The notes under the pieces: generated by a model
Seen by the model: only the letters and a program-made list of their open reading frames with translations
Told to the model about the DNA's origin: nothing
The model's database searches: none
In this document: positions 1,391-25,502 of the stretch, in pieces
How the letters are laid out: each line of letters begins with the position of its first letter
Position numbering within the stretch: position 1 is the stretch's first letter
IMG/VR virus record: IMGVR_UViG_3300044640_002813
Span: 1-55,207 of that record
Direction: 5' to 3' (one strand)
Length of the DNA stretch: 55,207 nucleotides
DNA from: a virus
Taxonomy: Duplodnaviria > Caudoviricetes
Program-made: the position numbers and the translations under genes

Positions 1391-2416
1391 ATGGGATTTA
1401 GACACGTTATACCCTATTCAAAATGGCATAAGGTAAATGAAGTTAATATTGCGGCATATAATCAACCTTCTATTCCACTTAAACAGCCTATTTTAACTAA
1501 TAAGGATGGATCATCTATTCCTAATCCTGAAGATAAAAAAGAAGGGGCTCCGGTTGTTAAAACGGAGGATCCAGCTCCTAGCGGAATTCCAACTCCGAAT
1601 AATACTTCATTGCGGGACGATTTAATTACAATCGCAGTAAATAAGACAGTGGTTAAATTTATAGATTTAATGAACGAGAATAAAAAATATTTTCCAGCTG
1701 AATTATATAAAGGAAAAAAAGAATTTTGGGAATTCTTCACTAATGTTCAAAATGGAACCTTAAGTAAGCCTGAATTTGCTAAAATGGTAAAAGACAAGAA
1801 GCTTATATTCTGTCCGCCAGTTGATAGCGATATGAAAGTTTCAATGGACTACTTCACGTGGTTCCCGTCTGATGACACTGGAGAAAACTGGACGCTTGAA
1901 CCCTATACTCAACCTGGATTCAATAAGATCGCTTGGACTTTTAAAGATAGTTATTCATGTCCAGTTCCAACAACAAAGGAAGAGAGAGAAAAAGAACCTA
2001 CTCTAGGTGAAACCTTTCCTCAGTTAGGACTAGGAAATCCAGATTCTTCTACTAAAACCTGTCCATTTGGGCCGGGTGAATGGCTATATGTCAAGCAATT
2101 CTCAGGTTCTGAGGCTCCAGAATATAATGGTCAGAAAAAGGTTTCTGCCAGATCTCTTGCGGCTACCTCATCTGCTACTTCTTCTACACTTACTACTAGC
2201 GCAACTCCAGCAGTTCCAGTTCCTACTGATATCTTGATCCTTGAACAGGACTACGAAACCAAGGTTACTACTGGTAAATCGTATGGATATGTCTTGTTAA
2301 TTAAGAGAAATCAAGCTCAAGGAGGATCAGCATCTTATGGTGGAGTCAGAGGAGGAAGTTACGGAGTAGGAGGATACGGAACCCCAGTTGAAAAGTACAG
2401 TGCAAAGTACTTCTAA
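1391..2416 (+). CDS. Hypothetical late protein with capsid-targeting-like leader (putative internal virion protein)
   Basis: 341-aa ORF; leader MGFRHVIPYSKWHKVNE; ATAAATA 17 nt upstream. Confidence 0.75.
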   Translation: MGFRHVIPYSKWHKVNEVNIAAYNQPSIPLKQPILTNKDGSSIPNPEDKKEGAPVVKTEDPAPSGIPTPNNTSLRDDLITIAVNKTVVKFIDLMNENKKYFPAELYKGKKEFWEFFTNVQNGTLSKPEFAKMVKDKKLIFCPPVDSDMKVSMDYFTWFPSDDTGENWTLEPYTQPGFNKIAWTFKDSYSCPVPTTKEEREKEPTLGETFPQLGLGNPDSSTKTCPFGPGEWLYVKQFSGSEAPEYNGQKKVSARSLAATSSATSSTLTTSATPAVPVPTDILILEQDYETKVTTGKSYGYVLLIKRNQAQGGSASYGGVRGGSYGVGGYGTPVEKYSAKYF

Positions 2417-2440
2417 TTTGAAAAAAAGGAGTAATAAGGG

Positions 2441-2552
2441 AAATAAATAAAAAAAAGAATAACATATGTCTCACATTAAGAATTTTAAAGACTGGTTCCG
2501 AGTATATGAATCGGCAGGATTTAAGTACAAGTCAGGAATGGCAATTTTCGAA
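2441..2552 (+). repeat. Direct repeat copy 1 (promoter plus 29-codon leader); copy 2 at about 4740-4851
   Basis: Visible nucleotide alignment; 9 synonymous and 2 non-synonymous codon differences. Confidence 0.9.
2443..2449 (+). promoter_or_regulatory. Late-type promoter motif ATAAATA
   Basis: 16 nt before ATG 2466. Confidence 0.6.
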
Positions 2553-4097
2553 ACGACCCCCACTCCAAGCGATGGTTCAATAGAAGCAGATATAAAGGTT
2601 CAATTTGCTGCAGGAGCATATGGAGCAACTCAAGCTGAACAAGATCAGTTAATAGGTCAAATACGAACAAGTTTAACCCCATTAGTAGAGTTCATTAAAA
2701 ATCCTGCACCGGATTATTTTGGACACTTTATAAATATTGAAGTTGAAGCTAGTGCAGACGCAACTGGATTATCAGCGGGAGCACTCCAAAAAGCTGCTGC
2801 TCTAGGGATCACCGCACAAATGCAACCTTCTGAACAAAATACAATTTTATCAAATGCTAGAAAGGATACGTGTATCAAATTAATAAACAAAATATTAGTA
2901 GAAGAACTTGGCGTGACTGAAGAAGAATTAAAAACTAAAATTACTATATCTGGAAAAGCAACAGTTAGTCCTAACCTAAATGATCCAAGTGCAAGATTTG
3001 TAAAAGCTAGATTAAGTAAGGGAGCTCAATATTTGCCGCCGCCGCCGCCTGATAAGATAGAAGAAGACGTACTCAAATGTGGTTACGAAGAAACAAAGGA
3101 GGGAACCGAAGCTAAAAAATATCCATACATTGGATATGAAAAAAAGGTTAAAAGTTCTATGAGGACTGGTCAAAAAATGACTTTGTCATTTAATTCATAC
3201 AACTATCCAGATGCATTCTATATAAAATATGGAGACGTTGAAAAATTTAGCGGATTCATTGGAGCACAAAAAAAGGACGGTAGAGATTTTAATTCGGAGC
3301 TATCTAGCTATGGAGCAGAACTTAAAAAAGCAGTTGATGAGACTATTAAGAGACTCGGAGGAAAGATTGAATCAGATTTACAAACAGATTTTCAAGTAAC
3401 AGGCACACCTACTGAAATGACGAATGCTTTAAAAAAGAAAATAAAGGAGAGTACACTTGATCCTAAATATCATGAATGGCCTCTTATGATTGTAGGATAC
3501 TTAAATGATAGCGGTAATCGATCCGACGGAATTTTGGGGACCACTTGGGTTCAAAATCCTGGAGAAGCTATGGCTTTACCGCCAGATGAATATTTAATAG
3601 GCGCTAAATCACAAAACAGTTTAATGTTAAAAACTCTATTAAAAGAAGGGTTTATTTCTATTCCAGATGAAGGCAATTATAGTGATGCATTTCGGGAAAA
3701 ACTAGAGGGTACTGATTCTAATCCTACTGAAAATGATAAAAAATTAATAGAAGAAGAAGGATCAAAATGGAAAAAAGTGAAATGGACTATTGACAATGCT
3801 TCTAAATTTGCTGGAGGAGGAAGGGGCATAGACGGTTCAACAATAAAGCCTAGAGACATAACAAAGGAAAAAAACTACACGCCGTTAACCAAAGAAATAG
3901 TTTTGGAAATGATTAAGAATGGAAGTTTAGGGGAAGAAGTAAAGAATAGAAGAAACTTAACTCCAAATCCCGCAAATAAAAATGCACTGGATTTTAATTT
4001 TACCTTTGAAAAAGATTTTAGAGATGAATACGTAACAATTGTTGTATTTTCGCCTTTATCTGGAACCGAATTTAATATTAAAGCAACTTGTAAATAA
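2466..4097 (+). CDS. Putative virion cargo protein A1: conserved 29-aa leader plus OmpA-C-like domain
   Basis: 543 aa; leader MSHIKNFKDWFRVYESAGFKYKSGMAIFE shared with 4765..6561; OmpA-like pattern F.AG...NIEVEASAD...NTILSNAR...ARFVK; poly-Pro linker. Confidence 0.7.
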   Translation: MSHIKNFKDWFRVYESAGFKYKSGMAIFETTPTPSDGSIEADIKVQFAAGAYGATQAEQDQLIGQIRTSLTPLVEFIKNPAPDYFGHFINIEVEASADATGLSAGALQKAAALGITAQMQPSEQNTILSNARKDTCIKLINKILVEELGVTEEELKTKITISGKATVSPNLNDPSARFVKARLSKGAQYLPPPPPDKIEEDVLKCGYEETKEGTEAKKYPYIGYEKKVKSSMRTGQKMTLSFNSYNYPDAFYIKYGDVEKFSGFIGAQKKDGRDFNSELSSYGAELKKAVDETIKRLGGKIESDLQTDFQVTGTPTEMTNALKKKIKESTLDPKYHEWPLMIVGYLNDSGNRSDGILGTTWVQNPGEAMALPPDEYLIGAKSQNSLMLKTLLKEGFISIPDEGNYSDAFREKLEGTDSNPTENDKKLIEEEGSKWKKVKWTIDNASKFAGGGRGIDGSTIKPRDITKEKNYTPLTKEIVLEMIKNGSLGEEVKNRRNLTPNPANKNALDFNFTFEKDFRDEYVTIVVFSPLSGTEFNIKATCK

Positions 4098-4740: not shown

Positions 4741-4747
4741 ATAAATA
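4741..4747 (+). promoter_or_regulatory. Late-type promoter motif ATAAATA
   Basis: 17 nt before ATG 4765. Confidence 0.6.
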
Positions 4748-4764
4748 ATAAAAAAGAATAACAA

Positions 4765-6561
4765 ATGTCACACATTAAAAACTTTAAAGACTGGTTCCGA
4801 GTGTATGAATCAGCAGGATTTAAGTATCAGCCTGGCATGGCAATATTTGAAGCGACAATTACCCCAGGGGCGCTTTATGCTGCTGATACTGCTATTGAAA
4901 ATTTGGAAGGGTTGTCAACTAAACTTGATAAAATGACTTCAGAAATGTCAACTGACTGGACCTCACTTATAAATGGATGGAAAAAATTAATTGCAAACAA
5001 AGCACCGGGTGACGGAAAGGCTGAGACAAGTAACGTTTACACAACATGGTTTGAGGGCTCCAAAGCCGGTAATCTCGACAAGGCACAGACAGAGTTCAGT
5101 GCATTCCTAGCAGACACCACCAAATATACAAAACCATCTTTTTCAATTGTGAAGAATGATTTTGTAATTAACAATGCAAAAGGAAGAAAGGTTCCGTTTA
5201 CTAACGGATCACTAACATGGTGGATCAATGCTGACAATTTACTCATGAGGTTTAATGCAACTAATATTTTAAATATGCTTGTATCGTTAAATGACCACTA
5301 TCCGACTGCAGCTTGGGCCAGCGGTAAAACAGTTGAACAGTTGGGATCAATGGCATGGGACAAAATAAAAGATGGAGGAGGCATAGGAAAATGGTATTGG
5401 CCTGATGCCGCAGTTGCCAAAATCGTCGCCCCTGCTATCCAAAGATTCTTATCCTGGAAAGATGCATTAGCGATAAGCTCAGGTTCTAAAGCATTGTCTG
5501 CTGATAGCTTAGGTGGAGGAATCAAGGCAGGAGATACGGTTTCAGACCCAAAAGGGATGGAAAAGGAGATTCTTGTTCAAAAATTTGGTTTTTATACTAT
5601 TGCTTCAGTGGAACAAGGAGCCGGAAATGAATACACCAAATTTGAGACAACCTCAGTTCAGGTTCCAGTCGGAGGAGGAAAAGGGGCAGTTGCAGTTAAA
5701 GACGATAAGCAATCTTTACTGGGATCATCTGGTTTATTTGCTCAAGGTTCTAAAACTCCAGTTCCAGCCAAAGCCGCTGGACAGCTTGAAGCCTTACAAA
5801 AGATATTAAGTCAGTATTCTAACATTACTTCTATTAAAGTTCAAGGATCCGCCTCATGGGAATGGACTAACGGTAACACAAGAGACGACGCTCAAAATCT
5901 GGCATTAGCTAAAATTAGAGCTCAATGGTTTATTGATCAACTTAATGTCGGAACAAACAAAGTTGCAACCATGTGGATGCCTACTGAAGTAGATAAAGTG
6001 GTAAATGGAGTAAAGCAGGTAGTAGGTGAAGGGGCCGTAGTTCAACCTACTAATGATGTAAAAACTGCTCCTGATTGGAGGGTAACCAACTTCTTTATAA
6101 CTGGAGATAAAGTAACAGAAAATACACTACCTGAAAAATGGATCACAGTGACTGAAACTGGAGATATTACATTAAAATATGATAAGGTTACAATCACCGA
6201 GCATATTTTAACGGTTTCTTTTACATCTCCAGGATTGATAACGTCTAAAGGATGGGGACAGGAGAAAGGTAAAAAAGATATAAAATCAGAGCTTAAACAG
6301 AGTACTAAATGGGATGACTTAAAGGCGGGACAGGAGATAGTTATAAACGATAAGTCAGACCCTCCAAAACCAGTCGGAGGTGGAGTCGATGGTAAACAGA
6401 TTTTCGTAGTAGGCGAAGGTACTGAAAAAAATACCTTAAAGGTTAAATTGGTAACTACAAAGGACGGTCAGAAATCAGAAAGAGAGATTGACAACGTAAT
6501 CAAAGATAGATATCTAAGAGAAGTAAAACCTAAACCTGTCGAAGGAGAAGATAACTTATAA
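4765..6561 (+). CDS. Putative virion cargo protein A2: conserved 29-aa leader plus OmpA-C-like domain
   Basis: 598 aa; leader 27/29 identical to 2466..4097; LFAQGS...ITSIKVQGSAS...NLALAKIRAQ...WRVTNF matches the OmpA-C pattern. Confidence 0.72.
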   Translation: MSHIKNFKDWFRVYESAGFKYQPGMAIFEATITPGALYAADTAIENLEGLSTKLDKMTSEMSTDWTSLINGWKKLIANKAPGDGKAETSNVYTTWFEGSKAGNLDKAQTEFSAFLADTTKYTKPSFSIVKNDFVINNAKGRKVPFTNGSLTWWINADNLLMRFNATNILNMLVSLNDHYPTAAWASGKTVEQLGSMAWDKIKDGGGIGKWYWPDAAVAKIVAPAIQRFLSWKDALAISSGSKALSADSLGGGIKAGDTVSDPKGMEKEILVQKFGFYTIASVEQGAGNEYTKFETTSVQVPVGGGKGAVAVKDDKQSLLGSSGLFAQGSKTPVPAKAAGQLEALQKILSQYSNITSIKVQGSASWEWTNGNTRDDAQNLALAKIRAQWFIDQLNVGTNKVATMWMPTEVDKVVNGVKQVVGEGAVVQPTNDVKTAPDWRVTNFFITGDKVTENTLPEKWITVTETGDITLKYDKVTITEHILTVSFTSPGLITSKGWGQEKGKKDIKSELKQSTKWDDLKAGQEIVINDKSDPPKPVGGGVDGKQIFVVGEGTEKNTLKVKLVTTKDGQKSEREIDNVIKDRYLREVKPKPVEGEDNL

Positions 6562-7509: not shown

Positions 7510-7534
7510 AAAAAGAGGGAGTAGTCTCCCTCTT
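7508..7534 (-). terminator. Intrinsic terminator
   Basis: AAGAGGGAG-tagt-CTCCCTCTT with a U-tract on the minus strand, between convergent genes. Confidence 0.8.
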
Positions 7535-8618
7535 AAATTAATCCTCCAAGTCCTAGTTCTTCTAGTCCTAATTCTTTAAAGATGTCAGTATAAACTGTAG
7601 CAGTTTTACCGGTTGCAATGAATTGTAAGAATTTACTACATGCTCCCATTAAGCTGTGACGTTCTACCACATCTTTGATATCAGCTTTCTTATCCCAAGA
7701 ATCTGGTGCCTTTTTCTTATAGTCTCCCTTGTCTCCTAGGTATTCAATGAATTTTCTGTATTCTACATCGATCTGACCGTCTGACATGGTACCCGTTTCG
7801 ATGTCCTTAGCTGCAGCTAACAATTGAGCAAGAGGCCCAGCTGCTGAAATTGATTGATAACTACCAAAGTCTTTTAATTCTTCAGGATCAATCTGAGACA
7901 ATTGCCTTTGGAAATCCTCCTTCTTTTTAACCGATTTCTTATCGTATACTTTGGTCAAGATGTTAGTGTATTCTTTCTTAAAATAATCCAAGAAAATCTT
8001 GTCGTCCATCTTTTTAGTCTCTTCTCGTTTCTCACGTTTTTCAGTAGCTCTGGTTTCTCGTTCCATGATATAGAGAACTGAATTTTCAGTGATGTCCTCT
8101 CTTAATTGTTCGATTGTGCCTCTCCATGCTGCTACTGGTTCTCCAGTCTCGCGGTCAATAGTTACGATTCGGATATAGTTACCGCGTTTCTGAGAAACTT
8201 CTGGACGGTCTGGATCGTATCCTTTCCAATCCCGAGTCTTACCTGTTTTTCGGGTAATGTAGTGAACCATCTGTTCGTCTGGATTTACCAAGATCAATTT
8301 AACTGCAGTATCAGTTCTTTTATCAATACTGTTTACTAAGTAATCATAGATTCTCTGAACTCCTGATTTGGATCCAACTACTCCAACGTCATGTGATACC
8401 GGATCATCCTGAGTTTGAGGCCAGTCTCCACCGTATTCTCCGTGTAAGGTTCTAAATTTACCTCCACGCATCATACCGGATTTGGTTCTAGCAACATTTT
8501 TGCCAGTCAGCTTGTGAATGAACTGCATCAGGTCCTTTGGAACCCCTAGTTTGGTCAATTCACTCGCCATCTCATTGATCTGAGAATATTGATTGAATCC
8601 TTTTAAATATCTTTTCAT
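7533..8618 (-). CDS. Hypothetical late protein with capsid-targeting-like leader
   Basis: 361 aa; MKRYLKGFNQYSQINE; ATAAATA upstream; terminator downstream. Confidence 0.75.
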   Translation of the reverse strand: MKRYLKGFNQYSQINEMASELTKLGVPKDLMQFIHKLTGKNVARTKSGMMRGGKFRTLHGEYGGDWPQTQDDPVSHDVGVVGSKSGVQRIYDYLVNSIDKRTDTAVKLILVNPDEQMVHYITRKTGKTRDWKGYDPDRPEVSQKRGNYIRIVTIDRETGEPVAAWRGTIEQLREDITENSVLYIMERETRATEKREKREETKKMDDKIFLDYFKKEYTNILTKVYDKKSVKKKEDFQRQLSQIDPEELKDFGSYQSISAAGPLAQLLAAAKDIETGTMSDGQIDVEYRKFIEYLGDKGDYKKKAPDSWDKKADIKDVVERHSLMGACSKFLQFIATGKTATVYTDIFKELGLEELGLGGLI

Positions 8619-8627
8619 AATGTAGAT

Positions 8628-8686
8628 TCTTTTTTATTATTTATTAGAAAAAAGTCCGGATATTTTAAGATAAATAATAAAAAAGA
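8628..8686. promoter_or_regulatory. Back-to-back divergent late-type promoters
   Basis: ATAAATAATAAAAAAGA on both strands (8628-8644 minus, 8670-8686 plus) forms a 17-bp inverted repeat. Confidence 0.65.
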
Positions 8687-8693: not shown

Positions 8694-10097
8694 ATGAGTA
8701 ATAGATTTATCATTACAGAATATAAAAATTGGTCTAAATTTGGACATGCTAATTTTAATAAAATTTATGAGAATATTCCGAAGGATGCCTCTCTAGCGGC
8801 AGGTCCGGTTGCTCCAGTAGCGCCAGTAGCGCCAGTAGCGCCAGGCCAAGTAGATGCGGCTACTCCAACTACAACAGTTCCAGAAGAACTTCAAACAGCT
8901 GACACTCAGCAAAAGGCTAATGAAGAATTAGATAGAGGATGTAATTGGATGGTTGTTGCAAAATCAGATGGAAATAAGGAGGTTTTATATATTAAGGAAG
9001 AAAAAACAGCAGATTCTACTTCCTTTACTCTATTAGCAGGAGACAAGGCTAAAGCAGAAGCTGTTTCTAAATTTAGCACTGGCTTATCTACTATACGAGT
9101 TCAAGGCGGAGGATTTGATAAAACTAAAGCGATAGGATCCTATTATTTCGGTTCATTAGGAGGATCCTATAATGTATATGTTGCAAAAGACGATCACTGC
9201 TTCTATCTTAAGCAGGTTCTCGGACAGGGAACTACCGGATCTAGTTTGACTGCTAATGCATCGGCAGATTCGATGGGAGAATATTATACGGTTGAATGGG
9301 TAAGAGATGAAAATTTTGCGAATAGCGGAATTTTGATGGTGTGGAAAAAATTAGCAAGCGGAAAGCTAGAGAAAAAAGGATATTTACAGCCTGATACCGG
9401 AGGAGAAGACTACGTGTTTATCAAATTTTTAAGTCAAACTGGATCATGGGAGCCTAAAGCGCTGAGTGATGGCCCTAGATATTTTGTTAATGCAAATAGA
9501 ATAATAACATTTGCTAATAATCTCTGGAATGCGATGTCTGGGGGTGGAACTGATCCGTTTTTAATAAACGGGACTCTAACTGACATGCAACCTCTTGAAT
9601 TCCTGGTTTTAGAGAGATTATGGACCAGCAATGCGTGGTCAACACCAGCTGGAACTCTTAGTAAACTAGATCCTAGAATTTCAAATGCTTCAGACTTTGC
9701 TAAATTTGCCAATGCAACTCCAGTGTATGACCAGGCTGACGTCGATACCAACGATCCTATGTCTTCTTCTGACGATATTGTAGAATATTTCCCTTCAGCT
9801 AAAACTCCAAGCTTGCTACTGGATTTATTTTGGGAAATGGAGGATCATTATGATGAACGCCAACTAGCAATGACAACACAGCTTGATAGATTAATCGGAG
9901 GTCTAGTTAATGAAAAGGAAGCTGATTATGCAAAGCCTTTTCAAATTGAAGAAGAACAATCTGGAAATATTATAATTAATACCCAAGAAGATATCCTCGA
10001 ATTAAAAGGTATAAAAGGATTAAGCATTATTGAATTAGGTAAAATGCTACAAAACGAGGCAAGTGGATATAAATTATCTGAATACTGGAAAGATTAA
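8694..10097 (+). CDS. Putative virion protein with an annexin-like repeat
   Basis: 467 aa; leader ...YKNW...KIYE; (PVA)x4 linker; ANNLWNAMSGGGTD resembles the annexin A..L..AMkG.GTD motif. Confidence 0.65.
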   Translation: MSNRFIITEYKNWSKFGHANFNKIYENIPKDASLAAGPVAPVAPVAPVAPGQVDAATPTTTVPEELQTADTQQKANEELDRGCNWMVVAKSDGNKEVLYIKEEKTADSTSFTLLAGDKAKAEAVSKFSTGLSTIRVQGGGFDKTKAIGSYYFGSLGGSYNVYVAKDDHCFYLKQVLGQGTTGSSLTANASADSMGEYYTVEWVRDENFANSGILMVWKKLASGKLEKKGYLQPDTGGEDYVFIKFLSQTGSWEPKALSDGPRYFVNANRIITFANNLWNAMSGGGTDPFLINGTLTDMQPLEFLVLERLWTSNAWSTPAGTLSKLDPRISNASDFAKFANATPVYDQADVDTNDPMSSSDDIVEYFPSAKTPSLLLDLFWEMEDHYDERQLAMTTQLDRLIGGLVNEKEADYAKPFQIEEEQSGNIIINTQEDILELKGIKGLSIIELGKMLQNEASGYKLSEYWKD

Positions 10098-15841: not shown

Positions 15842-15860
15842 TTAATTATATTATTTTAAT

Positions 15861-15935: not shown

Positions 15936-16316
15936 TTACCAGTTTTTTCTCCATCTCCAAGATTCGTTAGCTGGCTCTTCACCTTCAGCTGGCTCTTCGC
16001 CTTCTTCACCTTCAGCTGGCTCTTCGCCTTCTTCACCTTCAGCTGGCTCTTCTTCAGCTCCACCACCTTCTAATTCTTCAACTCTAGCTGTCAAATCATC
16101 AAGCATAGCTTTTAAATCTTCTAGTGTAACTTCTTCTCCTTCTCCTTCAGCTCCTTCTTCGCCTTCTTCTGGCATTTCATCAGTTAAAGCAGCTCCACCT
16201 TCTTCATCCTCTGGATTAGCTCCATAGTATCCGAAGTCTTCGCCTTCTGCATATTCTCCTGACATTGATTCATTCAATCTTGCTCGCATGAATCCTGAAA
16301 AATTTTTTACTTTCAT
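15936..16316 (-). CDS. Highly acidic small protein (prohead core or internal-protein-like)
   Basis: 126 aa; leader MKVKNFSGFMRARLNE; short coiled coil; EEPAEGEEG repeats; own promoter motif and terminator. Confidence 0.75.
   Translation of the reverse strand: MKVKNFSGFMRARLNESMSGEYAEGEDFGYYGANPEDEEGGAALTDEMPEEGEEGAEGEGEEVTLEDLKAMLDDLTARVEELEGGGAEEEPAEGEEGEEPAEGEEGEEPAEGEEPANESWRWRKNW
15969..16052 (-). repeat. 27-bp coding tandem repeat (EEPAEGEEG)
   Basis: TTCACCTTCAGCTGGCTCTTCGCCTTC, about three copies. Confidence 0.9.
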
Positions 16317-16346
16317 TTTAATCTAATTATTTTTTATTATTTTAAT

Positions 16347-16353
16347 TATTTAT
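16347..16353 (-). promoter_or_regulatory. Late-type promoter motif ATAAATA
   Basis: 30 nt before ATG 16316. Confidence 0.5.
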
Positions 16354-17042: not shown

Positions 17043-17069
17043 ATTATACTCAAGACCTGAAAAAGGTTT
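17043..17069 (-). promoter_or_regulatory. Bipartite promoter motif AAAC-N16-GTATAAT
   Basis: Upstream of 16519..17025. Confidence 0.62.
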
Positions 17070-19206
17070 AAGCGTATTCTTCTGAAAAATTAGGTCTAAT
17101 TCCCTGAGCTGCAGATATTCCCCAGGTAGGATCAGTTCCCCATCCTCCATTTGCTCTAACGAAATTATAGATCGCATCATCTATAGTTTCAAATCCGTTA
17201 GGATCTATTCCTTTCTGTTTAAGTTGAGGAACTAACATTGCAACTGCAATCTTAGCAGCTATCACTGGATTATTAGCAAGATCGGGATTAGAGACAAGAT
17301 CAGCTCCGACCACCTTACCATACTGAGCATATAGGCTCTTAAAGGTGATGCCATTAAATCCTCTACCTCTATATTTCCAACCGTCTCCTTTTTGAGTATT
17401 ACCGGTATTTGGCCATAAATAAGGAGTAGCCTCCTTTCCATAAACCGCGTCCCAGAATTCCTCTTCATTATTTTTAAGAGCGGTCAGTTCAGCGTCATCA
17501 TATTTTGCAACTCTGGCTCCAAAAATAGATCGGATTCGGCTATTAGCTGTTGTTGCATAGCTTATTTCTCTCTGAGGTATAAATCCACTCTCTTTTCCAA
17601 TAACACAAAGAAGTCCAATTAAAGACTTGGTATTAGTGATTCCCGCCTTTTTAGCTACTTCTTCTATGATCCTGATATTTTTAGCCTGCTCACCCGTATA
17701 TGTGTGCTTGATTCGACTAGGTCCAGTTATTTCTATTTGGATATCACCTTGATCGACCTTTCCAGAATCCGCTATTTCTTCATCAGGGAGAGAAAATAAT
17801 CTTAACATTATTTTACCTATTTCAGTGTCTGTAATGTCCTTTTCCTCTTTTTGAATAACCTGAATAATTCTATCATCTTTTTTTATAAATTGGCCTGTTG
17901 GTTTTTTATCTTTATCGTATACATCATAAATATTTTTATCCATAAATTTACGCTTAACTATAAGCATTCTTCTATTTTCTTTATCATATATTTTAATAAA
18001 ATTTCTTCTCTTTTTAGAAAAACTGGTTCCTGAATAGAGTTCCCTTTCAGTATCGTCGTCTAGAGCTCCAGTCTCAGGCAGACCTTTATCTTTTTGAAAT
18101 TTCATTAAAGTTGCTTTAGTTTCTCCATAAAAGAGACCATCAATTCCATATACTGGAAGCTCGTATCCTTTATCAACTAGGGCCTGTTGCATTCGTTTAA
18201 CGTCTTCTGATTCTGAACCATATTTTAAAGTTCCTCCTTCTGAAGATGATGAAGAAATATCTCTACCTGCCCCTGATAGATATGGAAGAGGATCAACATG
18301 GTCCCCATTGAGAGATTTTCTGATTTCAAAGTGTAGATGTGCCCCTCTAGAATTTCCAGCCCCTCCTTCTACTCCTTGATCTCCGCCTGACTTTCCTATG
18401 ATCTGACCCTTTTTGACGCTATCACCTGCCTGGACATCCATTTGAGAAAGATGAGCGTATAAAGAATAGAGGGTTTCACCGCCTACATCATGTCGAATTA
18501 ATATCACGTTTCCATATCCATACTTATCTGACATATCGGCACGTTCAACGGTTCCGTCTGCAATTGATACAACACCTGCCCCAGTTGGAATACCTAGATC
18601 TATTCCTTTATGCATTCTTCCCCACCTAGGTCCAAATTTTGAAGTTAAAGTGGCTTCAGATGCTAGTGGATAATTAAATTTTCCTTCTCCAGAATCTGAT
18701 TCTTCAGGTTCAGTTTTAGGTGCTCCTAATATATTTCCAGATTCATCAACATAGTTTTTTAAATCTTTATTCTTAAGTCCAATATGTACATGTTCATACC
18801 ACGTTCTGCCGTCTGATGGCCGACCGATATGACCGATGAGTTCACCTTTCTTTAGTTCATATCCACTTTTAATTGAAGGTTCTAAACTTCCAAGATGAGT
18901 GTAGAACACCTTTTCATTGAATTCTGATGCCGTTACCGTGACATGCCAACCATATACTTTCTGATTAGATGAGTTAGATAATTTTACTGATTTAACTTTA
19001 CCGTCAAATATCGAATATACTGGAGTTCCTGCTTTTGCCATGACATCCCATGCATTATCAGATTCCCAATTACCAAATGCCCTTTTACCATGTGCATCAG
19101 GTCCGCCACCCCATGTGAATTTTTTGTTTCCAACCAAGTGGCTAGATGAGGTTGCAGATTCGTTAATTGCTTTATGATATTTCCAAGGATTTATGAAATC
19201 GTGCAT
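17068..19206 (-). CDS. Multidomain peptidoglycan hydrolase: M23 + M23 + PG-binding + GH19-like lysozyme
   Basis: M23 motifs YTHL...HVH and HKGID...YAHL...HLHFE; PG-binding VKRMQQAL...IDGLFYGET..LMKFQKDKGL; GH19-like KESGF...GDGWKYRGRGF; leader ...KAINE. Confidence 0.9.
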   Translation of the reverse strand: MHDFINPWKYHKAINESATSSSHLVGNKKFTWGGGPDAHGKRAFGNWESDNAWDVMAKAGTPVYSIFDGKVKSVKLSNSSNQKVYGWHVTVTASEFNEKVFYTHLGSLEPSIKSGYELKKGELIGHIGRPSDGRTWYEHVHIGLKNKDLKNYVDESGNILGAPKTEPEESDSGEGKFNYPLASEATLTSKFGPRWGRMHKGIDLGIPTGAGVVSIADGTVERADMSDKYGYGNVILIRHDVGGETLYSLYAHLSQMDVQAGDSVKKGQIIGKSGGDQGVEGGAGNSRGAHLHFEIRKSLNGDHVDPLPYLSGAGRDISSSSSEGGTLKYGSESEDVKRMQQALVDKGYELPVYGIDGLFYGETKATLMKFQKDKGLPETGALDDDTERELYSGTSFSKKRRNFIKIYDKENRRMLIVKRKFMDKNIYDVYDKDKKPTGQFIKKDDRIIQVIQKEEKDITDTEIGKIMLRLFSLPDEEIADSGKVDQGDIQIEITGPSRIKHTYTGEQAKNIRIIEEVAKKAGITNTKSLIGLLCVIGKESGFIPQREISYATTANSRIRSIFGARVAKYDDAELTALKNNEEEFWDAVYGKEATPYLWPNTGNTQKGDGWKYRGRGFNGITFKSLYAQYGKVVGADLVSNPDLANNPVIAAKIAVAMLVPQLKQKGIDPNGFETIDDAIYNFVRANGGWGTDPTWGISAAQGIRPNFSEEYA

Positions 19207-19225
19207 CTATTTGATTAATTTTTAT

Positions 19226-19232
19226 TATTTAT
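19226..19232 (-). promoter_or_regulatory. Late-type promoter motif ATAAATA
   Basis: 19 nt before ATG 19206. Confidence 0.6.
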
Positions 19233-19712
19233 TTAGGAAAGGCGGTCTAGAATTATCATTTGAGATCTGTGTATCATTCCATAAGCATCTCGGATTGGAA
19301 CAAATCCTGCCCAGTCTACTTCTTCTAATTGTAATTGAGATTTAGGAACTTTAAGATCTATAAGATCTATTTCTGAAAGATCTTGAATTAGCATATTAAA
19401 ATAAATCAGCTGGCCTGTCAATTTACCTGAATCATCATACTTATATGACTCCATAGGACTGAGATCTAATTGATTTGAAATCTGATCAGGTCTAATAATG
19501 ATTCCAGTTTCCTCCCTCATTTCTCTGATTGCGGCTTCAAGAGGATCTTCACCCTCTTCTATCTTTCCTTTAGGGATGCTTAAATTGTTTTTATGCCAGC
19601 TTGAATTAGTAGAGTGGACCAATAGGATCAAGTCAAGATACTTAATGGCGATCCCAGCGGCTACTCTAGGCTTATTCATAGATTCATTAAAGGATTTAAA
19701 ATTTAAGATCAT
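19233..19712 (-). CDS. Nudix hydrolase
   Basis: Perfect Nudix box G-KIEEG-E-DPLEAAI-REMREETGI; leader MILNFKSFNE. Confidence 0.93.
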   Translation of the reverse strand: MILNFKSFNESMNKPRVAAGIAIKYLDLILLVHSTNSSWHKNNLSIPKGKIEEGEDPLEAAIREMREETGIIIRPDQISNQLDLSPMESYKYDDSGKLTGQLIYFNMLIQDLSEIDLIDLKVPKSQLQLEEVDWAGFVPIRDAYGMIHRSQMIILDRLS

Positions 19713-19887
19713 TATTCTTATTTGCTAAATATTTTGCTCTATTTAATTGTTCTCTTCTTTTTTGAGATTTAGAAATAAAAGTTTTTCTGTTTCTCAATTC
19801 ATCGTGTATTTTATACTTATCCATCCTTTGACGATAAGTTTTTAAAACTGATTCTATTTTTTTATTTTTAACCTCTACTATTATCAT
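19696..19887 (-). CDS. rpsU: Phage-encoded 30S ribosomal protein bS21
   Basis: 63 aa, basic; MIIVEVK..KIESVLK.YRQR...ELRNRKTFISKSQKRREQLNRAKY fits the Bacteroidota/phage bS21 pattern (EL.R..F.KPS..RR). Confidence 0.85.
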   Translation of the reverse strand: MIIVEVKNKKIESVLKTYRQRMDKYKIHDELRNRKTFISKSQKRREQLNRAKYLANKNNDLKF

Positions 19888-20738
19888 TTTTTAAATAATT
19901 TTGAATAGTCCATAGAATACTTACTCTTGATTAATTTAGAATCAAAGTATTTCCTTTTATAATAATCTGAAAGATCTTCATCTAATATTCTATTTTTAAC
20001 CCAAGGTGGGAGTTTGGAATTATAATGATCTTGATATATGTTATTATATACTGTATATGCCTGATGAGGATTTAAATTTAAATTTTTATTTAAATCCGAA
20101 AGATATATTTTTCCATCTAATGATTCGATTAAATCTATATTAAATACATCTAATTTATATGATTCATATAGATCATTGACAATGTCTTTTATTTGATTCG
20201 AATGTTTAAATGAATTAAGATCCATATCAAATGACATGTTGTTAATCTTTTCTTCTCCGCATATGGGATAATTTTTAAATGCGACTATTTTAAAACGAGT
20301 CCGGGGCTGAGGAGATTCAGTAAACATTTTATACCGAGTCTCAGCTTGCCTGAGTTTATGCAACGTTTTATATAAATCTGATTTATTACCATTTGATGCA
20401 GTAACTGGAAACTTTAATAATTTAACATTTTGAATATTATCAACCGCGTTAGGAATCCAGTTTTTATTTTTAAAATCAGAAAAGACTTCATTTAAAGATG
20501 GAGTAATAGCTGAATTATAAGTGCTAGAATTGGACTCATTGATTCGGATTGAATCAAAACTAAAATTATCACATAAAATTATTGGAATATCAGATTCTAG
20601 AAGATCGTATTTATTTTCTATGTGTTTAAAATATTCATGGCTCGGTTTATTCTGGCAAGCCAGGCCTATTTTTTTAAAGAATGCTATTTTATAGTCAGTG
20701 TGTCTTTTTACATAGTCATCAAATTTATGAAATTTCAT
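19884..20738 (-). CDS. RimK-like ATP-grasp protein, apparently degenerate
   Basis: WIP.AV...LKFPV; FKIVAFK; LDVFNIDLIESLDGKIYLSDLN resembles RimK D..GVD.....G..vlEVN, but the K-P..G..G.GV loop and E-x-N are altered. Confidence 0.55.
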   Translation of the reverse strand: MKFHKFDDYVKRHTDYKIAFFKKIGLACQNKPSHEYFKHIENKYDLLESDIPIILCDNFSFDSIRINESNSSTYNSAITPSLNEVFSDFKNKNWIPNAVDNIQNVKLLKFPVTASNGNKSDLYKTLHKLRQAETRYKMFTESPQPRTRFKIVAFKNYPICGEEKINNMSFDMDLNSFKHSNQIKDIVNDLYESYKLDVFNIDLIESLDGKIYLSDLNKNLNLNPHQAYTVYNNIYQDHYNSKLPPWVKNRILDEDLSDYYKRKYFDSKLIKSKYSMDYSKLFKK

Positions 20739-20759
20739 AATAACTTTATTGATTTTTAT

Positions 20760-20779
20760 TATTTATTTTTAGATAAATA
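20760..20779. promoter_or_regulatory. Back-to-back divergent late-type promoters
   Basis: ATAAATA at 20760-20766 (minus, RimK-like/bS21/Nudix operon) and 20773-20779 (plus). Confidence 0.6.
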
Positions 20780-20795: not shown

Positions 20796-21893
20796 ATGGG
20801 TAAAACTTATAATTCTTGGAAATCAGTTAACGAATGGAATATTTTTAATAATCCAAAAAGAGGAAAACAGGTATTTACTTCCCCGTCTGGTCAAAAACAA
20901 AGAATGGCTTTTAAAATTCAAGATGATTTTAATTTCATTATCAAGCTTTTCAGATTTTCAGACGTTATAGATCAAAAAGGAAATATAACTTCATTAGGAA
21001 TGGACTCGTTAATTAAATTCTTTAATGGACAATCGGACATGACTAACGTTTATGGCCCGTTTGATAGTTCTTTTTTCCAAAAAAAGTTTTTACTCTATAC
21101 AGTATTAGAAGACTCAGCCGACAAAGATAAAATTCAATTTACTATCATTAGTAGGAATATTTATCCAAAATTAGGCCCTCAGAATATTATGGTAAATGCT
21201 ATGAATTTAGCAAATTTAATAAGCGCAAATCAGCCTGAGGACGCTGAAATAATTCAAAATATACAGATTAATCGAGAAAAAGTAAAGGATAAAGATATTG
21301 AAGAGCCTGAAAAATTGAAAGACGATGTCAAGAAGGAAGAGGCAGGCGGAACCGATGCTACTGAAAAGGAATTAGGAAACAAATTTAGATACACCATGAG
21401 ATCAAATGGCAAACTTTATTTAATGGAGTTTGCAGCAGGAGGAGCGATAGACGCTCAAGTAATAGGAGAAGGACATCCGAATGGAGCAATATCATGGGAG
21501 GGATCTAGATTGATGTGGTATACTGATGCTGATTCAGTTGATAATATATCAGTCTATTCTAAATGGATTGATGAGGATATTCCCCTGTACACGGATACTG
21601 AAATAAATAATCCTGCGGATAAAGAATTTTTGTCTAAAATATTTACAGATGATGCATTTAGAAAAAAGGTAATCGGTGAATATGAAAAGGAATTTGGAGA
21701 ATCTGAAGTTAATTCTACAACTATAAAAAAGATGCTATTCTTTAAAGATGGTACTCCTATATTTCCAGAAGAAATAAAGCAACCAGTTCAATCCTCAACT
21801 ATTGATTCTAATACTGAAGATAATGTAGTTGAAGAACCTAAAGAAGACGAGGACTATGAATGGGTTAGAAAAGAAGAAACAAAATATTTCTAA
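20796..21893 (+). CDS. Hypothetical late protein with capsid-targeting-like leader
   Basis: 365 aa; MGKTYNSWKSVNE; ATAAATA upstream. Confidence 0.75.
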   Translation: MGKTYNSWKSVNEWNIFNNPKRGKQVFTSPSGQKQRMAFKIQDDFNFIIKLFRFSDVIDQKGNITSLGMDSLIKFFNGQSDMTNVYGPFDSSFFQKKFLLYTVLEDSADKDKIQFTIISRNIYPKLGPQNIMVNAMNLANLISANQPEDAEIIQNIQINREKVKDKDIEEPEKLKDDVKKEEAGGTDATEKELGNKFRYTMRSNGKLYLMEFAAGGAIDAQVIGEGHPNGAISWEGSRLMWYTDADSVDNISVYSKWIDEDIPLYTDTEINNPADKEFLSKIFTDDAFRKKVIGEYEKEFGESEVNSTTIKKMLFFKDGTPIFPEEIKQPVQSSTIDSNTEDNVVEEPKEDEDYEWVRKEETKYF

Positions 21894-21899: not shown

Positions 21900-23552
21900 A
21901 TGTATAACGTAAATAATTATAAAAGATACGGTAATTTTTTATACGAGGACCTGAATATTTCTCTATCTGATGATTTAAATCCAAGATTGAAGCAATATCT
22001 GACCAATCAAAAATTAATAGACTTTTTAGCTGATAATTTTGATACTGTACCCGATGGACAGGAAGGTCAGATTCAATTAAATAACGAAGATTATGGAATA
22101 TTAAAAGAAGATAAGCTGTTTGTAAAAGTTGATAAGTCTAATCCTAAAGATCCTAAATTCTACTTATGGATCATGAATGATCAATTTTTATTCGGTGATG
22201 TTAATTTCGATATTGCAGCGACTCTATTAAAGCAAGCTGGAGATGAAGGAGGAACGATCGGGTATGTAGGAAATTTGTTAGGATCATTAATAGGATTGGG
22301 AGATGCTGGAGATTCCGGAACTGACGAAGACACAATAGTCGCAGTAGCAGGAGCAATGGCATCAATTGCTGCTGAAAAGAGTCAAGATCCGATGCTATAT
22401 TTTTCTAAATTAGCTGAGACTTTTTCTAAAAAATACGGACAAGATCTAACTTCTTTCTTAGAAACTGAATTTTCAGGAGGGTCAGAAGTGGCAGCTCTTA
22501 ACGCATTTAGAAGACCGATATCAGCTTCAACCGCTAGAGGTTTAAACATTCCAATGATTCTATTTGATGTTGCTTTAACTGCAGTTACATTTGGAGCTGG
22601 CACTGTTTTAAAAGCAGGGGTTCCAGCCGGAGCCAGAGGAGCAGCTGCAGCTACTCGTGCAGGTGAAGGTGCATTGGCCGCAACACGAGCAGGAGAAGCA
22701 GCAGGAGCTGCCGCAAGAGGAGCTGAAGCAGCAGCAGCCGGAGTCCGAGGAGCTGAAGGAGCAGTGATTGCTGGAGATGCAGCTTTAACTGGAACAAAAG
22801 GAGTTATATCCCGGCTTAAAGGATGGGCGGGAATTGGAAAAACCAAACAGATTAGTAATATTGAGCAGGAGATCAAAGTCGGTCAGCAGATCATGTATAA
22901 ACAAAAAAATAAAATGGTTCCACACAAAGTAACTGGAATAACTCAAAATGGAGTTCAGCTTCAGGCTTTAAGCGGACCTAAAAATACTTTCATAGCTGCC
23001 GCCGATAAATTTGTGTTAGAAGTTCATCCTAATCTTGCAAATAGAATTCTTAACCGAGCAGGATTAAATACAACTAAAGCCGGTTTAATACTTGCAACTA
23101 CTAAAATTAATAGCATTGTAGGTGCAACCTCTTCAACCGTAAGTCAGCCTGCTGGATTCTTTGGAAAAGCTGGAGAAATTATGGGATGGTACGATACATT
23201 TACAGCAGATGCAGGATCTTTTGCTGCATCTCTTCAAAATAAAACTGCTAAAGAATTAGCAGAAATGCTATTCGATCTTAAAAAAGGAACTGGATTCTTC
23301 GGTAATACTACTAATCAAGAGGAATTAGCAATGGCAGTTATCATAACCAGCCTTAGCCCTGAAGGAGCAAGACAGGTTCAAGCTGAATACTCTAAAATAG
23401 ATACTGAGATGTCAGTGTACGCTCTCTTAGCTGATGAAATTGGAGGAGAAGTTGGAATGTTCGCTAAGGCATATTGGACAGGAATAACCGGTGAAGGTAC
23501 AGAATATGTATCTGCAATCAGAAACGTTAGGGCTAAATTAAGAGCTAAATAA
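21900..23552 (+). CDS. Putative ejection/membrane protein with two annexin-like repeats and a Gly/Ala-rich hydrophobic segment
   Basis: GTDEDTI...KKYGQDLTSFLETEFSG and AEMLFDLKKG...QVQAEY...LLADEIGG; hydrophobic MILFDVALTAVTFGAG; AARGAE repeats. Confidence 0.68.
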   Translation: MYNVNNYKRYGNFLYEDLNISLSDDLNPRLKQYLTNQKLIDFLADNFDTVPDGQEGQIQLNNEDYGILKEDKLFVKVDKSNPKDPKFYLWIMNDQFLFGDVNFDIAATLLKQAGDEGGTIGYVGNLLGSLIGLGDAGDSGTDEDTIVAVAGAMASIAAEKSQDPMLYFSKLAETFSKKYGQDLTSFLETEFSGGSEVAALNAFRRPISASTARGLNIPMILFDVALTAVTFGAGTVLKAGVPAGARGAAAATRAGEGALAATRAGEAAGAAARGAEAAAAGVRGAEGAVIAGDAALTGTKGVISRLKGWAGIGKTKQISNIEQEIKVGQQIMYKQKNKMVPHKVTGITQNGVQLQALSGPKNTFIAAADKFVLEVHPNLANRILNRAGLNTTKAGLILATTKINSIVGATSSTVSQPAGFFGKAGEIMGWYDTFTADAGSFAASLQNKTAKELAEMLFDLKKGTGFFGNTTNQEELAMAVIITSLSPEGARQVQAEYSKIDTEMSVYALLADEIGGEVGMFAKAYWTGITGEGTEYVSAIRNVRAKLRAK

Positions 23553-25502
23553 TCACCATTTAGAGTAGGGAATCACGTGTTTAAACTTGGTAGATTCAGA
23601 TATATCTTTTTTAACAGTTGTTTCCTCTTCAGAATCTTTTAATTCAGGTGGAGTATCAATAGATAATTTCATTTCTTCATAATAATCAGGATTATCCGCG
23701 TGTACATTTGAATACCATTCTGCAACTTCAGGAGGTAATTTATCTTTTTCTCCACTTGTATAGTATACAACATCAACTATTCTAGGAAGATTAAATTTTT
23801 TGGCATAATAATCCAAATTATTTTGTAAAACTGGAACCGCATCATTATTTTCAAACGCATCTATATAGGGTACGCTGTATGATGCGTCTGGATTTTCTTT
23901 TAATTCTCGATCCATAATCTCTTGCATCTTCTGTTGAACTGCAGCATTTCCAAATAGTTCATATTCTCCTTCACTAAACTTTTTAGTTTGTCCGAAATGT
24001 CCAATCAATTTAAGAACCTGTTTCCCAATGAACAGGGGTACCATTTTACCAATTGTAATAGTTCCGAAAATCTTTCCAAACTTGTTTGCCTGACCGTATG
24101 TGTTACTAACTCGATTCATAAGACCTCCCACCTCTCCATAAAAGGAGTTTGCATTCATTTTAACACGACTCATCTCTGAAGTCAGATTCGTACCATATCT
24201 AGCAGAGATAAAATCAGTTTCTTTTAGAAATTCAGCGTCCAATTTAACCGCAGTTCCACTTTTAGTATTTACAATTAAATCGGTTCCTTTTGCTTCAATT
24301 CTTGCTCCATCTGAAGCGGCAGCCATAAAGAAATCATCTAGTTTTTGAACTTTGGCAGCATCTAATAATTGAGGAATGTTAGAAGCAAATTGATTCATTT
24401 TAGCAGAATAGGTTCCAAACATGTCAGCTATTCCTTCAAAAAAGGATCTTAAGGGTTTACCTACAAACGGGATCCATCCAACCACTGTTCCTAGAAAATC
24501 TCCAAAGAACTTAGCTATTAAATCTCCTATTGTTCCTAAAACCCCCTTAGTGCTTTTTCCAATATAGTCCAGGGCTTTCCAACTTTCAGGTCTAGCTGCT
24601 GCTGCTAAATTTATCGCATCTTTAGACATTTTAGCTGATCCACCTGCAACACCTCCGGCTGCTCCCATGTAACGGGTACTGATTTGTAAAACCTCAGCTC
24701 CTGCTTTGGATCCTTTAAACCAGCCTTTGAAAAGATCCCCAGCAAATGGAAGAGCTGCACATATAAAATTGATTAGTGCAAGTAACCATTTACCTCGAAT
24801 CATATAAATTATTCCATTGATGATATCCGCTATTAATCCTACTGGCTCAAATGCCGATCCAAAAAGTCCAACTAAATCTAGAACAAAGTGAAGAATTCCA
24901 ATTGGGGATCCTCCTTCAGTCAATGCACTTAGTAAGCCTTTCAGCATTCCTAATATTCCACCACCTCCCCAGTCCCCTTGAGAAGGGGAAGCTGCTCCGC
25001 TTACTGCAGCTAGAACGTCGTCTCCAGCTTCAGAAGAAGCAGGTGTAAATTCTCCAGATGCGGAAGAAGTTGGAGTCTCATCAAAAAATGACATGACATC
25101 ATCAGCAGTTTTTCCAATATCAAACGGGAGAGAAATATCGCTCTCGTTCACTTTCTTGAATCCAAATTCTCGAATCACTTTACTATATGATTCATTTAGT
25201 TTAGTGATCTCAGATTGAGACATGTGATTGAGGGACTCACGAACGATAGAATTAACTCCTCCCATCAGGTTTTTATAATAGTCAGTGCTTGTTACGATTC
25301 CTCGTTTAAGAATCATATCCAATTCAAGTTGGAATCTTAGATCTTCCGGAACCGACTCTTCAATCTTATTTAGGAAGTCGCATTCCTTTTTAATGGTTTC
25401 TAAACTAAGGGCCTTTGATAATTTATCCGCGTGCCCAACTAGTGCCTCATTAATAACAGAAGATAAATGGTTCAACTCAGAATAAGAGGAAACATGATTC
25501 AT
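23553..25502 (-). CDS. Putative ejection/membrane protein with a pre-toxin-TG-like hydrophobic module
   Basis: LDLVGLF...VGLIADIINGIIYMIRGKWLLALINFICAALPFAGD; several (I/L/V)xE-S sites in the N-terminal 125 aa; C-terminal FKHVIPYSKW. Confidence 0.68.
   Translation of the reverse strand: MNHVSSYSELNHLSSVINEALVGHADKLSKALSLETIKKECDFLNKIEESVPEDLRFQLELDMILKRGIVTSTDYYKNLMGGVNSIVRESLNHMSQSEITKLNESYSKVIREFGFKKVNESDISLPFDIGKTADDVMSFFDETPTSSASGEFTPASSEAGDDVLAAVSGAASPSQGDWGGGGILGMLKGLLSALTEGGSPIGILHFVLDLVGLFGSAFEPVGLIADIINGIIYMIRGKWLLALINFICAALPFAGDLFKGWFKGSKAGAEVLQISTRYMGAAGGVAGGSAKMSKDAINLAAAARPESWKALDYIGKSTKGVLGTIGDLIAKFFGDFLGTVVGWIPFVGKPLRSFFEGIADMFGTYSAKMNQFASNIPQLLDAAKVQKLDDFFMAAASDGARIEAKGTDLIVNTKSGTAVKLDAEFLKETDFISARYGTNLTSEMSRVKMNANSFYGEVGGLMNRVSNTYGQANKFGKIFGTITIGKMVPLFIGKQVLKLIGHFGQTKKFSEGEYELFGNAAVQQKMQEIMDRELKENPDASYSVPYIDAFENNDAVPVLQNNLDYYAKKFNLPRIVDVVYYTSGEKDKLPPEVAEWYSNVHADNPDYYEEMKLSIDTPPELKDSEEETTVKKDISESTKFKHVIPYSKW

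Follow-up and report, generated by a model that had tools for sequence, protein, structure and literature searches.

We analysed the 55,207-bp linear IMG/VR virus record IMGVR_UViG_3300044640_002813 (hereafter the window, meaning the whole stretch), in which an earlier reading of the DNA (the original prediction) had singled out 15 open reading frames (ORFs) between positions 1391 and 25502 whose otherwise dissimilar products begin with a shared leader, consisting of an aromatic pair followed by a hydrophobic-x-Glu site and likened to the cleavable capsid-targeting sequence (CTS) of phage T4. The CheckV completeness of the record is ~22%, which makes the window a fragment of a genome of ~250 kb, and its GC content is ~35%. 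Its TerL gene (39122-41101, minus strand) falls in the T4 superfamily, with nearest matches in uncultured huge phages of 460-640 kb (~36% identity), Sphingomonas phage PAU, Tenacibaculum phage PTm1 and Lak phages. A closer IMG/VR relative, G004 (253 kb, 94% complete), is 51% identical to the window in TerL and 56% in the baseplate wedge, and its gene order parallels window positions 16.5-43.7 kb. The window derives from a T4-superfamily phage of roughly 250 kb.

Fifteen window proteins begin with a two-part leader

The carriers are described here along the window, with an oblique stroke marking each candidate cut. The first (1391..2416, plus strand, 341 aa) joins a 17-residue leader, MGFRHVIPYSKWHKVNE/, to a body without a family match. 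The second (2466..4097, plus, 543 aa) has a 29-residue leader with two hydrophobic-x-Glu (Phi-x-E) sites, MSHIKNFKDWFRVYE/SAGFKYKSGMAIFE/; its AlphaFold model (pLDDT 67) shows a low-confidence helix at residues 3-16, disorder at 17-38 and a fold from about residue 39, for which the top Foldseek matches (3td3, 5u1h and 6u83; E ~1e-3, TM ~0.45-0.5) give moderate support to an OmpA-like peptidoglycan-binding assignment. The third (4765..6561, plus, 598 aa) carries the same leader (27 of 29 residues identical) on an unrelated body, and an identical protein is present on a 68-kb contig. These two genes form part of a duplicated two-gene cassette (2466-7115), in which each leader-tagged plus-strand gene is followed by a convergent small minus-strand gene (4123-4713 and 6627-7115); the small proteins, 29% identical to each other (E = 1e-7) and with a hydrophobic N-terminal segment, could conceivably serve as partner or immunity factors.

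Further along lie a 361-aa protein (7533..8618, minus; leader MKRYLKGFNQYSQINE/), a 467-aa protein with two candidate sites (8694..10097, plus; MSNRFIITE/YKNWSKFGHANFNKIYE/) and, behind the latter in the same operon, a 335-aa protein (10112..11119, plus; MRIAGYQNWSNRNFKGLYE/) with a PG_binding_3 domain at residues 223-252. The 1028-aa protein (12496..15582, minus; MHKLRGFDQFITE/) combines, fused in frame, what in the 634-kb huge phage LR745206 are two adjacent, separate genes, each with its own leader; G004 has two adjacent leader-tagged genes at this position, one of them a homologue. An ESM Atlas search with this protein returned only unnamed viral clusters (scores <=0.86), and a related-locus search seeded with it alone found nothing. 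Near its fusion junction (~residues 488-513) we noticed, by eye only, ..YLTE/S.. and ..LKSYEKYHQIFE/N (~500-513), a stretch that looks like a retained internal leader; BLAST aligns the 1028-aa protein with the second LR745206 gene only from residue 75 of the latter. Directly downstream of the fused gene lies a leaderless DUF192 protein (12059-12496, minus; E = 2e-19).

The next two carriers are small: an 88-aa protein with a basic, Pro/Thr-rich body (15575..15841, minus; MKINYVKGINE/), whose syntenic LR745206 counterpart of 84 aa is likewise leader-bearing, and an acidic 126-aa protein of pI 4.1 (15936..16316, minus; MKVKNFSGFMRARLNE/), whose leader type, MKVKNFAGFMK..LNE/, is found on similar-sized proteins in many related loci. 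They are followed by a 712-aa protein (17068..19206, minus; MHDFINPWKYHKAINE/), a candidate virion-borne cell-wall hydrolase because of its Peptidase_M23, PG_binding_1 and GH19 lysozyme-like domains, and by a 159-aa protein (19233..19712, minus; MILNFKSFNE/) with a NUDIX hydrolase domain from residue 15, whose LR745206 homologue also bears a leader. The 284-aa protein at 19884..20738 (minus) is leader-like only, starting MKFHKFDDY with an aromatic pair and no nearby Phi-N-E. The remaining three are a 365-aa protein (20796..21893, plus; MGKTYNSWKSVNE/), whose leader type, M.KSF..W..[VL][NT]E/, is found on 340-369-aa proteins in many related loci, a 550-aa protein (21900..23552, plus; MYNVNNYKRYGNFLYE/) and a 649-aa protein (23553..25502, minus; MNHVSSYSELNHLSSVINE/) with two predicted transmembrane helices at about residues 200-258, the AlphaFold model of which (pLDDT 57) was too poor for a structure search. 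Ten of the 15 leader proteins matched no Pfam or PHROGs family, and a PDB profile search with the protein alignment A1 returned 0 hits.

All 15 N-termini were recovered exactly as originally listed when ORFs were called in the window (longest ORF, greedy, >=50 aa; 55 ORFs). An aromatic pair at i/i+3 within the first 15 residues is present in 13 of the 15 and in 2 of the other 40 ORFs, and [LIVMF][NYT]E at residues 8-30 in 14 of the 15 and 6 of the 40, counts that are descriptive given that the set had been picked by eye. The statement that all but one of the proteins have a hydrophobic-x-E site also held (14/15), the exception being 19884-20738. Counted to the last Phi-x-E, the leaders span 10-29 residues; read directly, they contain no hydrophobic run, being charged or polar with isolated aromatics, and no Sec-, Tat- or lipoprotein-type hydrophobic core was found in any of the 15. 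As the original prediction had it, the sigma factor, beta-glucosyltransferase, terminase, baseplate and fibre genes of the window lack the leader.

For comparison across sequences, the pattern was written as a regular expression, [FYW]xx[FYW]x(0-14)[LIVMF][NYT]E within the first 30 residues. It matches 11 of the 55 window N-termini (10 claimed leaders plus the ORF at 38775-39083) against 6 of 501 internal 30-residue windows (binomial p = 5e-11), and 10 of the 23 ORFs inside the leader region against 1 of 32 outside it (Fisher p = 3e-4); shadow ORFs of the same DNA give 0/117 matches at >=45 aa and 0/95 at >=50 aa. On the window itself this test is circular, because the expression was written after the leaders had been seen.

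Leader genes lie behind a late-promoter-like motif

The motif ATAAATAATWAAAA (<=1 mismatch) occurs 17 times in the window against 0.82 expected and sits 10-15 nt before start codons. The original prediction that nearly all leader genes follow an ATAAATA motif or lie in its operons was borne out, with 10 sites directly upstream and the rest of the genes operon-internal or behind a variant. On the plus strand, the sites are 1367..1380 (ATAAATAATAAAAA) before the gene at 1391, 2443..2456 (one mismatch) before 2466, 4741..4754 before 4765 and 8670..8683 before 8694; on the minus strand, they are 8631..8644 before the gene starting at 8618, 15854..15867 before 15841, 16340..16353 before 16316, 19219..19232 before 19206, 20753..20766 before the operon that comprises 20738, the ribosomal protein gene bS21 and the NUDIX gene, and 25514..25527 before 25502. 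The genes starting at 10112 (plus), 15582 (minus), 19712 (minus) and 21900 (plus) are operon-internal, and a motif variant precedes 20796. Since the same motif also precedes the baseplate wedge (43748) and tail fibre (45231) genes, both without a leader, it behaves as a late promoter. Its core resembles the T4 late promoter, TATAAATA. LR745206 uses another motif, TAATATATA, before 34 of 77 leader genes and 112 of 865 other genes; the capsid, protease-scaffold and fibre-sized genes also have this motif or a close variant (TTATATATA for the capsid) in front of them.

Two small membrane proteins of the window, 7162-7509 (plus) and 37332-37658 (minus), likewise lie downstream of the late promoter motif. 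The sigma-70-family factor (429-1316, minus; regions 1.2, 2 and 4) adjoins the late gene island and may be the reader of the ATAAATAATAAAAA promoters.

The leader is conserved independently of the protein body

The leaders of the 2466 and 4765 proteins differ within their first 15 codons by 4 synonymous and 0 non-synonymous substitutions, and no similarity extends beyond the leader. In a six-protein alignment, 28 of the first 29 columns are invariant over bodies that are <=24% identical, and five database proteins with other bodies share the same 29-residue leader. In orthologues of the 2466 protein that are 70-78% identical to it, the residues change and the pattern stays (MPYLLNYKKWSSLYE/A), which also holds for orthologues at 30-78% identity generally. 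Because synonymous codons vary while conserved leader residues hold, selection on the leader acts at the protein level. Domains begin right after it, the NUDIX domain at residue 15 behind a 10-residue leader and the OmpA-like fold at ~39. For the 2466/4765 type, the pattern suggests cassette-like exchange of cargo.

The leader recurs in related loci and huge phages

The regular expression was applied unchanged to 80 IMG/VR loci found via homologues of the 649-aa protein, where it matches 119 of 1543 N-termini against 118 of 11647 internal windows. It is also enriched at the N-termini of G004 (22/319 against 27/2167 internal windows), LR745206 (30/942, against 1.08% internal) and the first 400 kb of LR756500 (20/534, against 1.18% internal). 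These counts, together with a position-specific scoring matrix (PSSM) applied to the window, confirm the N-terminal enrichment out of sample. Across the 80 loci, the cut motif follows 90 of 295 N-terminal aromatic pairs and 175 of 1877 internal ones (Fisher p = 3e-20); of these 90 sites, 76 have Asn-Glu at P2-P1 and 54 have Ser (30), Ala (17) or Gly (7) at P1'.

In LR745206, 81 of 942 ORFs, spread over the whole genome, start with M-[KR]-[YHFN]-[LIV]-[KRNST], an anchor that fits only 13 of 3418 internal Met positions, and 76 of these 81 have Phe or Tyr at position 7, which played no part in the selection. The resulting consensus is MKYLKxF(N/E)ES or MKYLKxYKxFES, and the LR756500 form MKYIKEYEDFINE/ joins this type of start to the Phi-N-E end seen in the window. 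By a PSSM built from LR745206 only, 7 of the 55 window N-termini score higher than 99% of internal positions, with 0.55 expected (Mann-Whitney p = 3e-7); six of the seven are claimed leaders, and the seventh, which has the top score among window ORFs, is the small membrane protein 37332-37658, whose start runs straight into a hydrophobic segment without a cut site.

The 649-aa protein has 40 homologues; among the 39 aligned, the start M[KR][HY][VI]..[YF] is seen in 30, and Phi-[NY]-E falls within residues 8-40 in 24. At least six families (the 649-aa transmembrane protein, the 365-aa, 550-aa and 126-aa proteins, the 2466 type and the two halves of the 1028-aa protein) recur with leaders in conserved order across related loci and G004.

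The proposed cut motif recurs in capsid and protease-scaffold proteins of relatives

Peptidase_S77, the family of the T4 prohead protease gp21, was found in seven relatives (LR745206, LR756502, PTm1, PAU, LR756500, G004 and G005), with the matches in LR745206 and LR756502 below the curated cut-off; it was not found in MaF61 or in three contigs of ~50% completeness. Gp23-family capsid genes are present in all five relatives searched (LR745206, LR756502, PTm1, G004 and G005). Immediately upstream of the capsid gene lies an ORF of 589-707 aa (G004 64429-66411, minus; LR745206 198546-200669, plus; PTm1 217778-219547, plus) that starts with the protease domain and continues into a long acidic tail, a protease-scaffold fusion; T4 keeps genes 21 and 22 separate.

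The Phi-N-E motif of the leaders reappears in both of these head proteins. The capsid proteins read ..GSLNE/STAPG at residue 53 in G004, ..FHSINE/NAY in LR745206 and ..GIINE/SYG in PTm1, and on alignment with T4 gp23 all three sites fall within the N-terminal propeptide region, the PTm1 site near the T4 cut and the LR745206 site at an earlier T4 I-F-E. In T4, 65 residues are removed from gp23 (PMC9958956), a stretch that ends L-T-E65 in the T4 record. Within the protease-scaffold ORFs, Phi-N-E is found 9 times against 1.6 expected in G004 and 9 times against 1.3 in PTm1 (0/5000 composition shuffles each), and 6 times against 2.2 in LR745206 (P = 0.02); the G004 protein has the top density of the motif among 151 proteins of >=200 aa. 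As a positive control, the T4 ORF following gp21, presumably gp22 from gene order, contains 16 [LI]xE against 5.8 expected (0/5000 shuffles) and ranks first of 90 proteins. Complex prediction for a 135-aa leader protein of G004 and the protease-scaffold of the same phage yielded no answer (score 0.00), which is evidence neither way.

Other genes of the window

Apart from the sigma factor, the window encodes a T4-type beta-glucosyltransferase, a baseplate wedge, collagen-like tail fibres and bS21. The bS21 gene (19696-19887, minus; Pfam Ribosomal_S21, 27.6 bits) is part of a late operon, where the leader-like 19884-20738 and the leader-tagged NUDIX gene flank it, and has homologues in LR745206 and G004. 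Jumbo phages of freshwater Bacteroidetes carry bS21 genes, according to excerpts of a published report (PMC9723584), so a Bacteroidota host is likely for the window phage, though putative. The beta-glucosyltransferase gene (25578-26576, minus; Pfam 33.4 bits, PHROG 1e-16) suggests that the phage DNA contains glucosylated hydroxymethyl-pyrimidines; a nuclease that targets DNA of this kind is counteracted in T4 by IPI*, a packaged protein (PMC3012670). Both strands at 54389-54942 have ORFs of low complexity (SLRSL.. and WT.R.. repeats), which probably arise because a repeat at the end of the contig is read in the wrong frame.

Interpretation and alternative explanations

We consider it probable, at about 70%, that the window leaders are head-targeting leaders of the T4 CTS type, cleaved by a prohead protease and carried by an unusually large set of proteins. 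Under this model, the aromatic-x-x-aromatic element would dock a newly made late protein onto the scaffolding core during prohead assembly, a gp21-family (Peptidase_S77) protease would cut after the Glu of Phi-(N/Y/T)-E, freeing the mature protein inside the head, and this protein would presumably leave the head along with the DNA when the next cell is infected. The cargo would comprise conserved internal or ejection proteins (the cell-wall hydrolase, peptidoglycan-binding proteins and the membrane-inserting protein), enzymes such as the NUDIX hydrolase, and cassette-like variable proteins that share an identical leader. We infer targeting, cleavage, packaging and injection from sequence patterns. 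The CTS-type reading of the original prediction thus keeps its two-part architecture, its late expression and a Phi-N-E motif that matches the capsid propeptides and protease-scaffolds of relatives. Homology to the T4 CTS was not demonstrated: the LR745206 leader PSSM, run on 274 T4 ORFs, places ipI, ipII and ipIII outside the top 10, behind unrelated MNYxKIYN.. N-termini, and the likeness to T4 is therefore architectural rather than statistically demonstrable homology.

That ranking is one of several results that weigh against a CTS-type leader. No Peptidase_S77 was found among the window proteins scanned, from ~22% of the genome, and genes for protease, scaffold and capsid are all missing from the window, so that the link to a protease rests on the relatives. 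The regular expression is not enriched in the cultured relatives PTm1 (3/308) and PAU (1/292). The G004 homologue of 19884-20738 (MIKKFDDFQ..) has the aromatic pair and, again, no cut site. With 81 of 942 ORFs as carriers, LR745206 would load a great deal into one head, which leaves room for another function. Finally, the leader proteins contain as many internal Phi-[NY]-E sites as their composition predicts (10, against 9.8 in shuffles) and show no depletion. A depletion had seemed present in the raw rates, 1.62 per 1000 aa in leader proteins against 3.30 in the others, and was rejected once composition was controlled, the difference being explained by an excess in the other proteins.

Among the alternatives, the one we take most seriously, although we judge it unlikely, accepts that the leader is protease-cleaved and holds that its carriers are mostly assembly or core components (scaffold-like, inner-body-like or ejection-channel parts that each virion requires) rather than host-directed effectors, the supposed delivery system then amounting to the ordinary internal head proteome of the phage. 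The conserved order of at least six leader families fits this, as does the 126-aa protein, very acidic as scaffold and core proteins often are, and excerpts of PMC9026906 describe many processed phiKZ-type head proteins as structural inner-body parts. It accounts poorly for the NUDIX and M23/GH19 hydrolases, which are enzymes and not scaffolds, and for an identical 29-residue leader over unrelated bodies, which resembles cargo swapping more than fixed structure; moreover, internal cut sites at chance level argue that the carriers are not built for degradation as the protease-scaffold is. The same syntenic core genes, present in many relatives, show that the "effector delivery system" of the original prediction was overstated: leader families in conserved order across loci make much of the set a conserved internal module, and these proteins look more like internal head or ejection proteins than like a variable arsenal. 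Its "many" proteins with envelope-interacting domains come down to 4 of 15 (M23+PG_binding+GH19, PG_binding_3, the OmpA-like fold and the two-transmembrane protein).

Those four envelope-related cargos, and a leader predicted to be helical with a Lys/aromatic pattern, could also be read as an export or membrane-association signal that takes late proteins to the cell envelope for lysis. We give this little credence, because a Sec, Tat or lipoprotein-type core is lacking, a cytoplasmic-type NUDIX enzyme bears the leader, membrane binding leaves the invariant Glu and the small residue after it unaccounted for, and capsid and scaffold proteins contain sites that match the motif. About equally improbable is that the shared N-terminus is a translation or expression signal of late genes (for example, for ribosomes containing phage bS21) or a promoter-near mRNA element instead of a sorting tag. 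The leaders do lie only 10-15 nt from a conserved promoter, bS21 is encoded in a late operon flanked by leader genes, and a preference of phage bS21 for late transcripts of the phage has been suggested (PMC9723584, in excerpts). Yet conservation is at the amino-acid level with codons varying synonymously, Phi-N-E stands at a variable distance of 10-29 codons from the start and also deep within the protease-scaffold proteins, and the baseplate wedge and fibre genes share the promoter without having the leader. Chance resemblance combined with common descent has been largely refuted. Lys/Asn/Phe-rich MK.. N-termini are common in genomes of ~35% GC, 2466 and 4765 are nearly the same over their first ~30 residues, and some LR745206 leader proteins fall, by eye, into paralogous families; against this stand the 11/55 versus 6/501 count with no match in 117 shadow ORFs of the same DNA, enrichments that hold out of sample in the 80 loci and G004, the absence of enrichment with the same expression in PTm1, PAU and T4 (2/274), and the unrelated bodies of 2466 and 4765 past the leader.

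A bolder extension of the CTS-type reading, which we offer tentatively and on balance doubt, is that in this clade of jumbo and huge Bacteroidota-type phages the head is a programmable delivery container, in which one short, swappable tag (aromatic-x-x-aromatic ... Phi-N-E) loads dozens of proteins and a pre-made proteome for takeover and counter-defence enters with the DNA. If so, ~80 genes of a 600-kb phage (81/942 ORFs, ~9%) would be tagged, the cargo would include cell-wall hydrolases, a membrane-inserting protein, a NUDIX hydrolase and many small proteins, and leader-flanked cassettes would allow cargo exchange between phages.

Implications

Jumbo and huge phages consist mostly of genes without an assigned role. 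A CTS-type leader, if real, would supply a location (inside the head) and a timing (the first moment of infection) for 15 proteins of the window, 22 of G004 and ~80 of LR745206, and would predict the exact mature N-termini of leader proteins. The capsid-targeting principle of T4, which is known from a few coliphage proteins, would then also operate in a distant and environmentally widespread lineage, at a far larger scale. Existing viral metaproteomes can be mined for semi-tryptic peptides that obey the Phi-N-E rule, and foreign proteins could be loaded into Bacteroidota phage heads by means of the tag.

Comparison with known systems

Short terminal tags that address unrelated enzymes into an HK97-fold shell are known from encapsulins, where the cargo-loading peptides are usually C-terminal and not removed by a protease, and the shell is a cellular nanocompartment and not a virion. 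Among Bacteroidota phages, the crassvirus crAss001 stores proteins in its head for ejection, as parts of PMC10172136 relate. It is a podovirus of a separate lineage. We know of no shared cleavable leader in crAss001. A literature search, which covered few subscription journals and no supplements, turned up no paper that describes a CTS-type leader in connection with Bacteroidota, jumbo or huge phages.

Closer in kind are the jumbo phages phiKZ, 201phi2-1 and SPN3US (protease gp175/gp245), which have Glu-cleaved propeptides on inner-body and ejection proteins. In sections of PMC5694885 and PMC9026906, many head-internal proteins of phiKZ-type phages are described as cut after Glu by a gp21-related protease, with propeptides thought to direct them into the prohead. 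Their motif is S/A/G-x-E and most of their propeptides exceed 100 residues (PMC5694885), whereas the window leaders have a hydrophobic P3 (14/15), the form hydrophobic-N-E and a length of 10-29 residues. In SPN3US, 8 of ~50 head proteins are processed (PMC5694885); the window tag differs in marking a defined, readily recognised family.

The T4 CTS, carried by the internal proteins IPI, IPII and IPIII and by Alt and removed by the prohead protease gp21, remains the nearest parallel. In the T4 record, ipII and ipIII begin MKTYQEFIAE/A and ipI begins MKTFKEFTSTTTPVSTITE/A, so that IPIII numbers M-K-T-Y4-Q-E-F7-I8-A-E10. Mutational analysis of IPIII links residues 4 and 7 with targeting and residues 8 and 10 with processing, an Asp at position 10 abolishing processing and not targeting, and the CTS has been suggested to let T4-like phages load varied proteins (all from the portions consulted of PMC9026906). 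The aromatic pair and Phi-x-E of the window correspond to these targeting and processing positions; in both systems, the propeptide is short and N-terminal (10-19 residues in T4, 10-29 in the window) and conserved over unrelated bodies, expression is late, and the lineage has a gp21-family protease and a gp23-family capsid protein. As a side observation, T4 gene 61.1 (NC_000866 18966-19130, minus) encodes a 54-aa hypothetical protein, gp61.1, that starts MKTFKEFIKE/D, close to the ipI, ipII and ipIII leaders. The window leaders differ from the T4 CTS in that P2 is almost always Asn in the relatives and variable in T4, in that the spacer between the two leader elements varies, and in that the carriers include large multi-domain enzymes and a transmembrane protein, not just small basic proteins. 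Above all, a handful of carriers in T4 compares with 15 in 24 kb of the window and 81 leader-type ORFs in LR745206, and what is notable in this leader system is its scale and its reach into huge phages.

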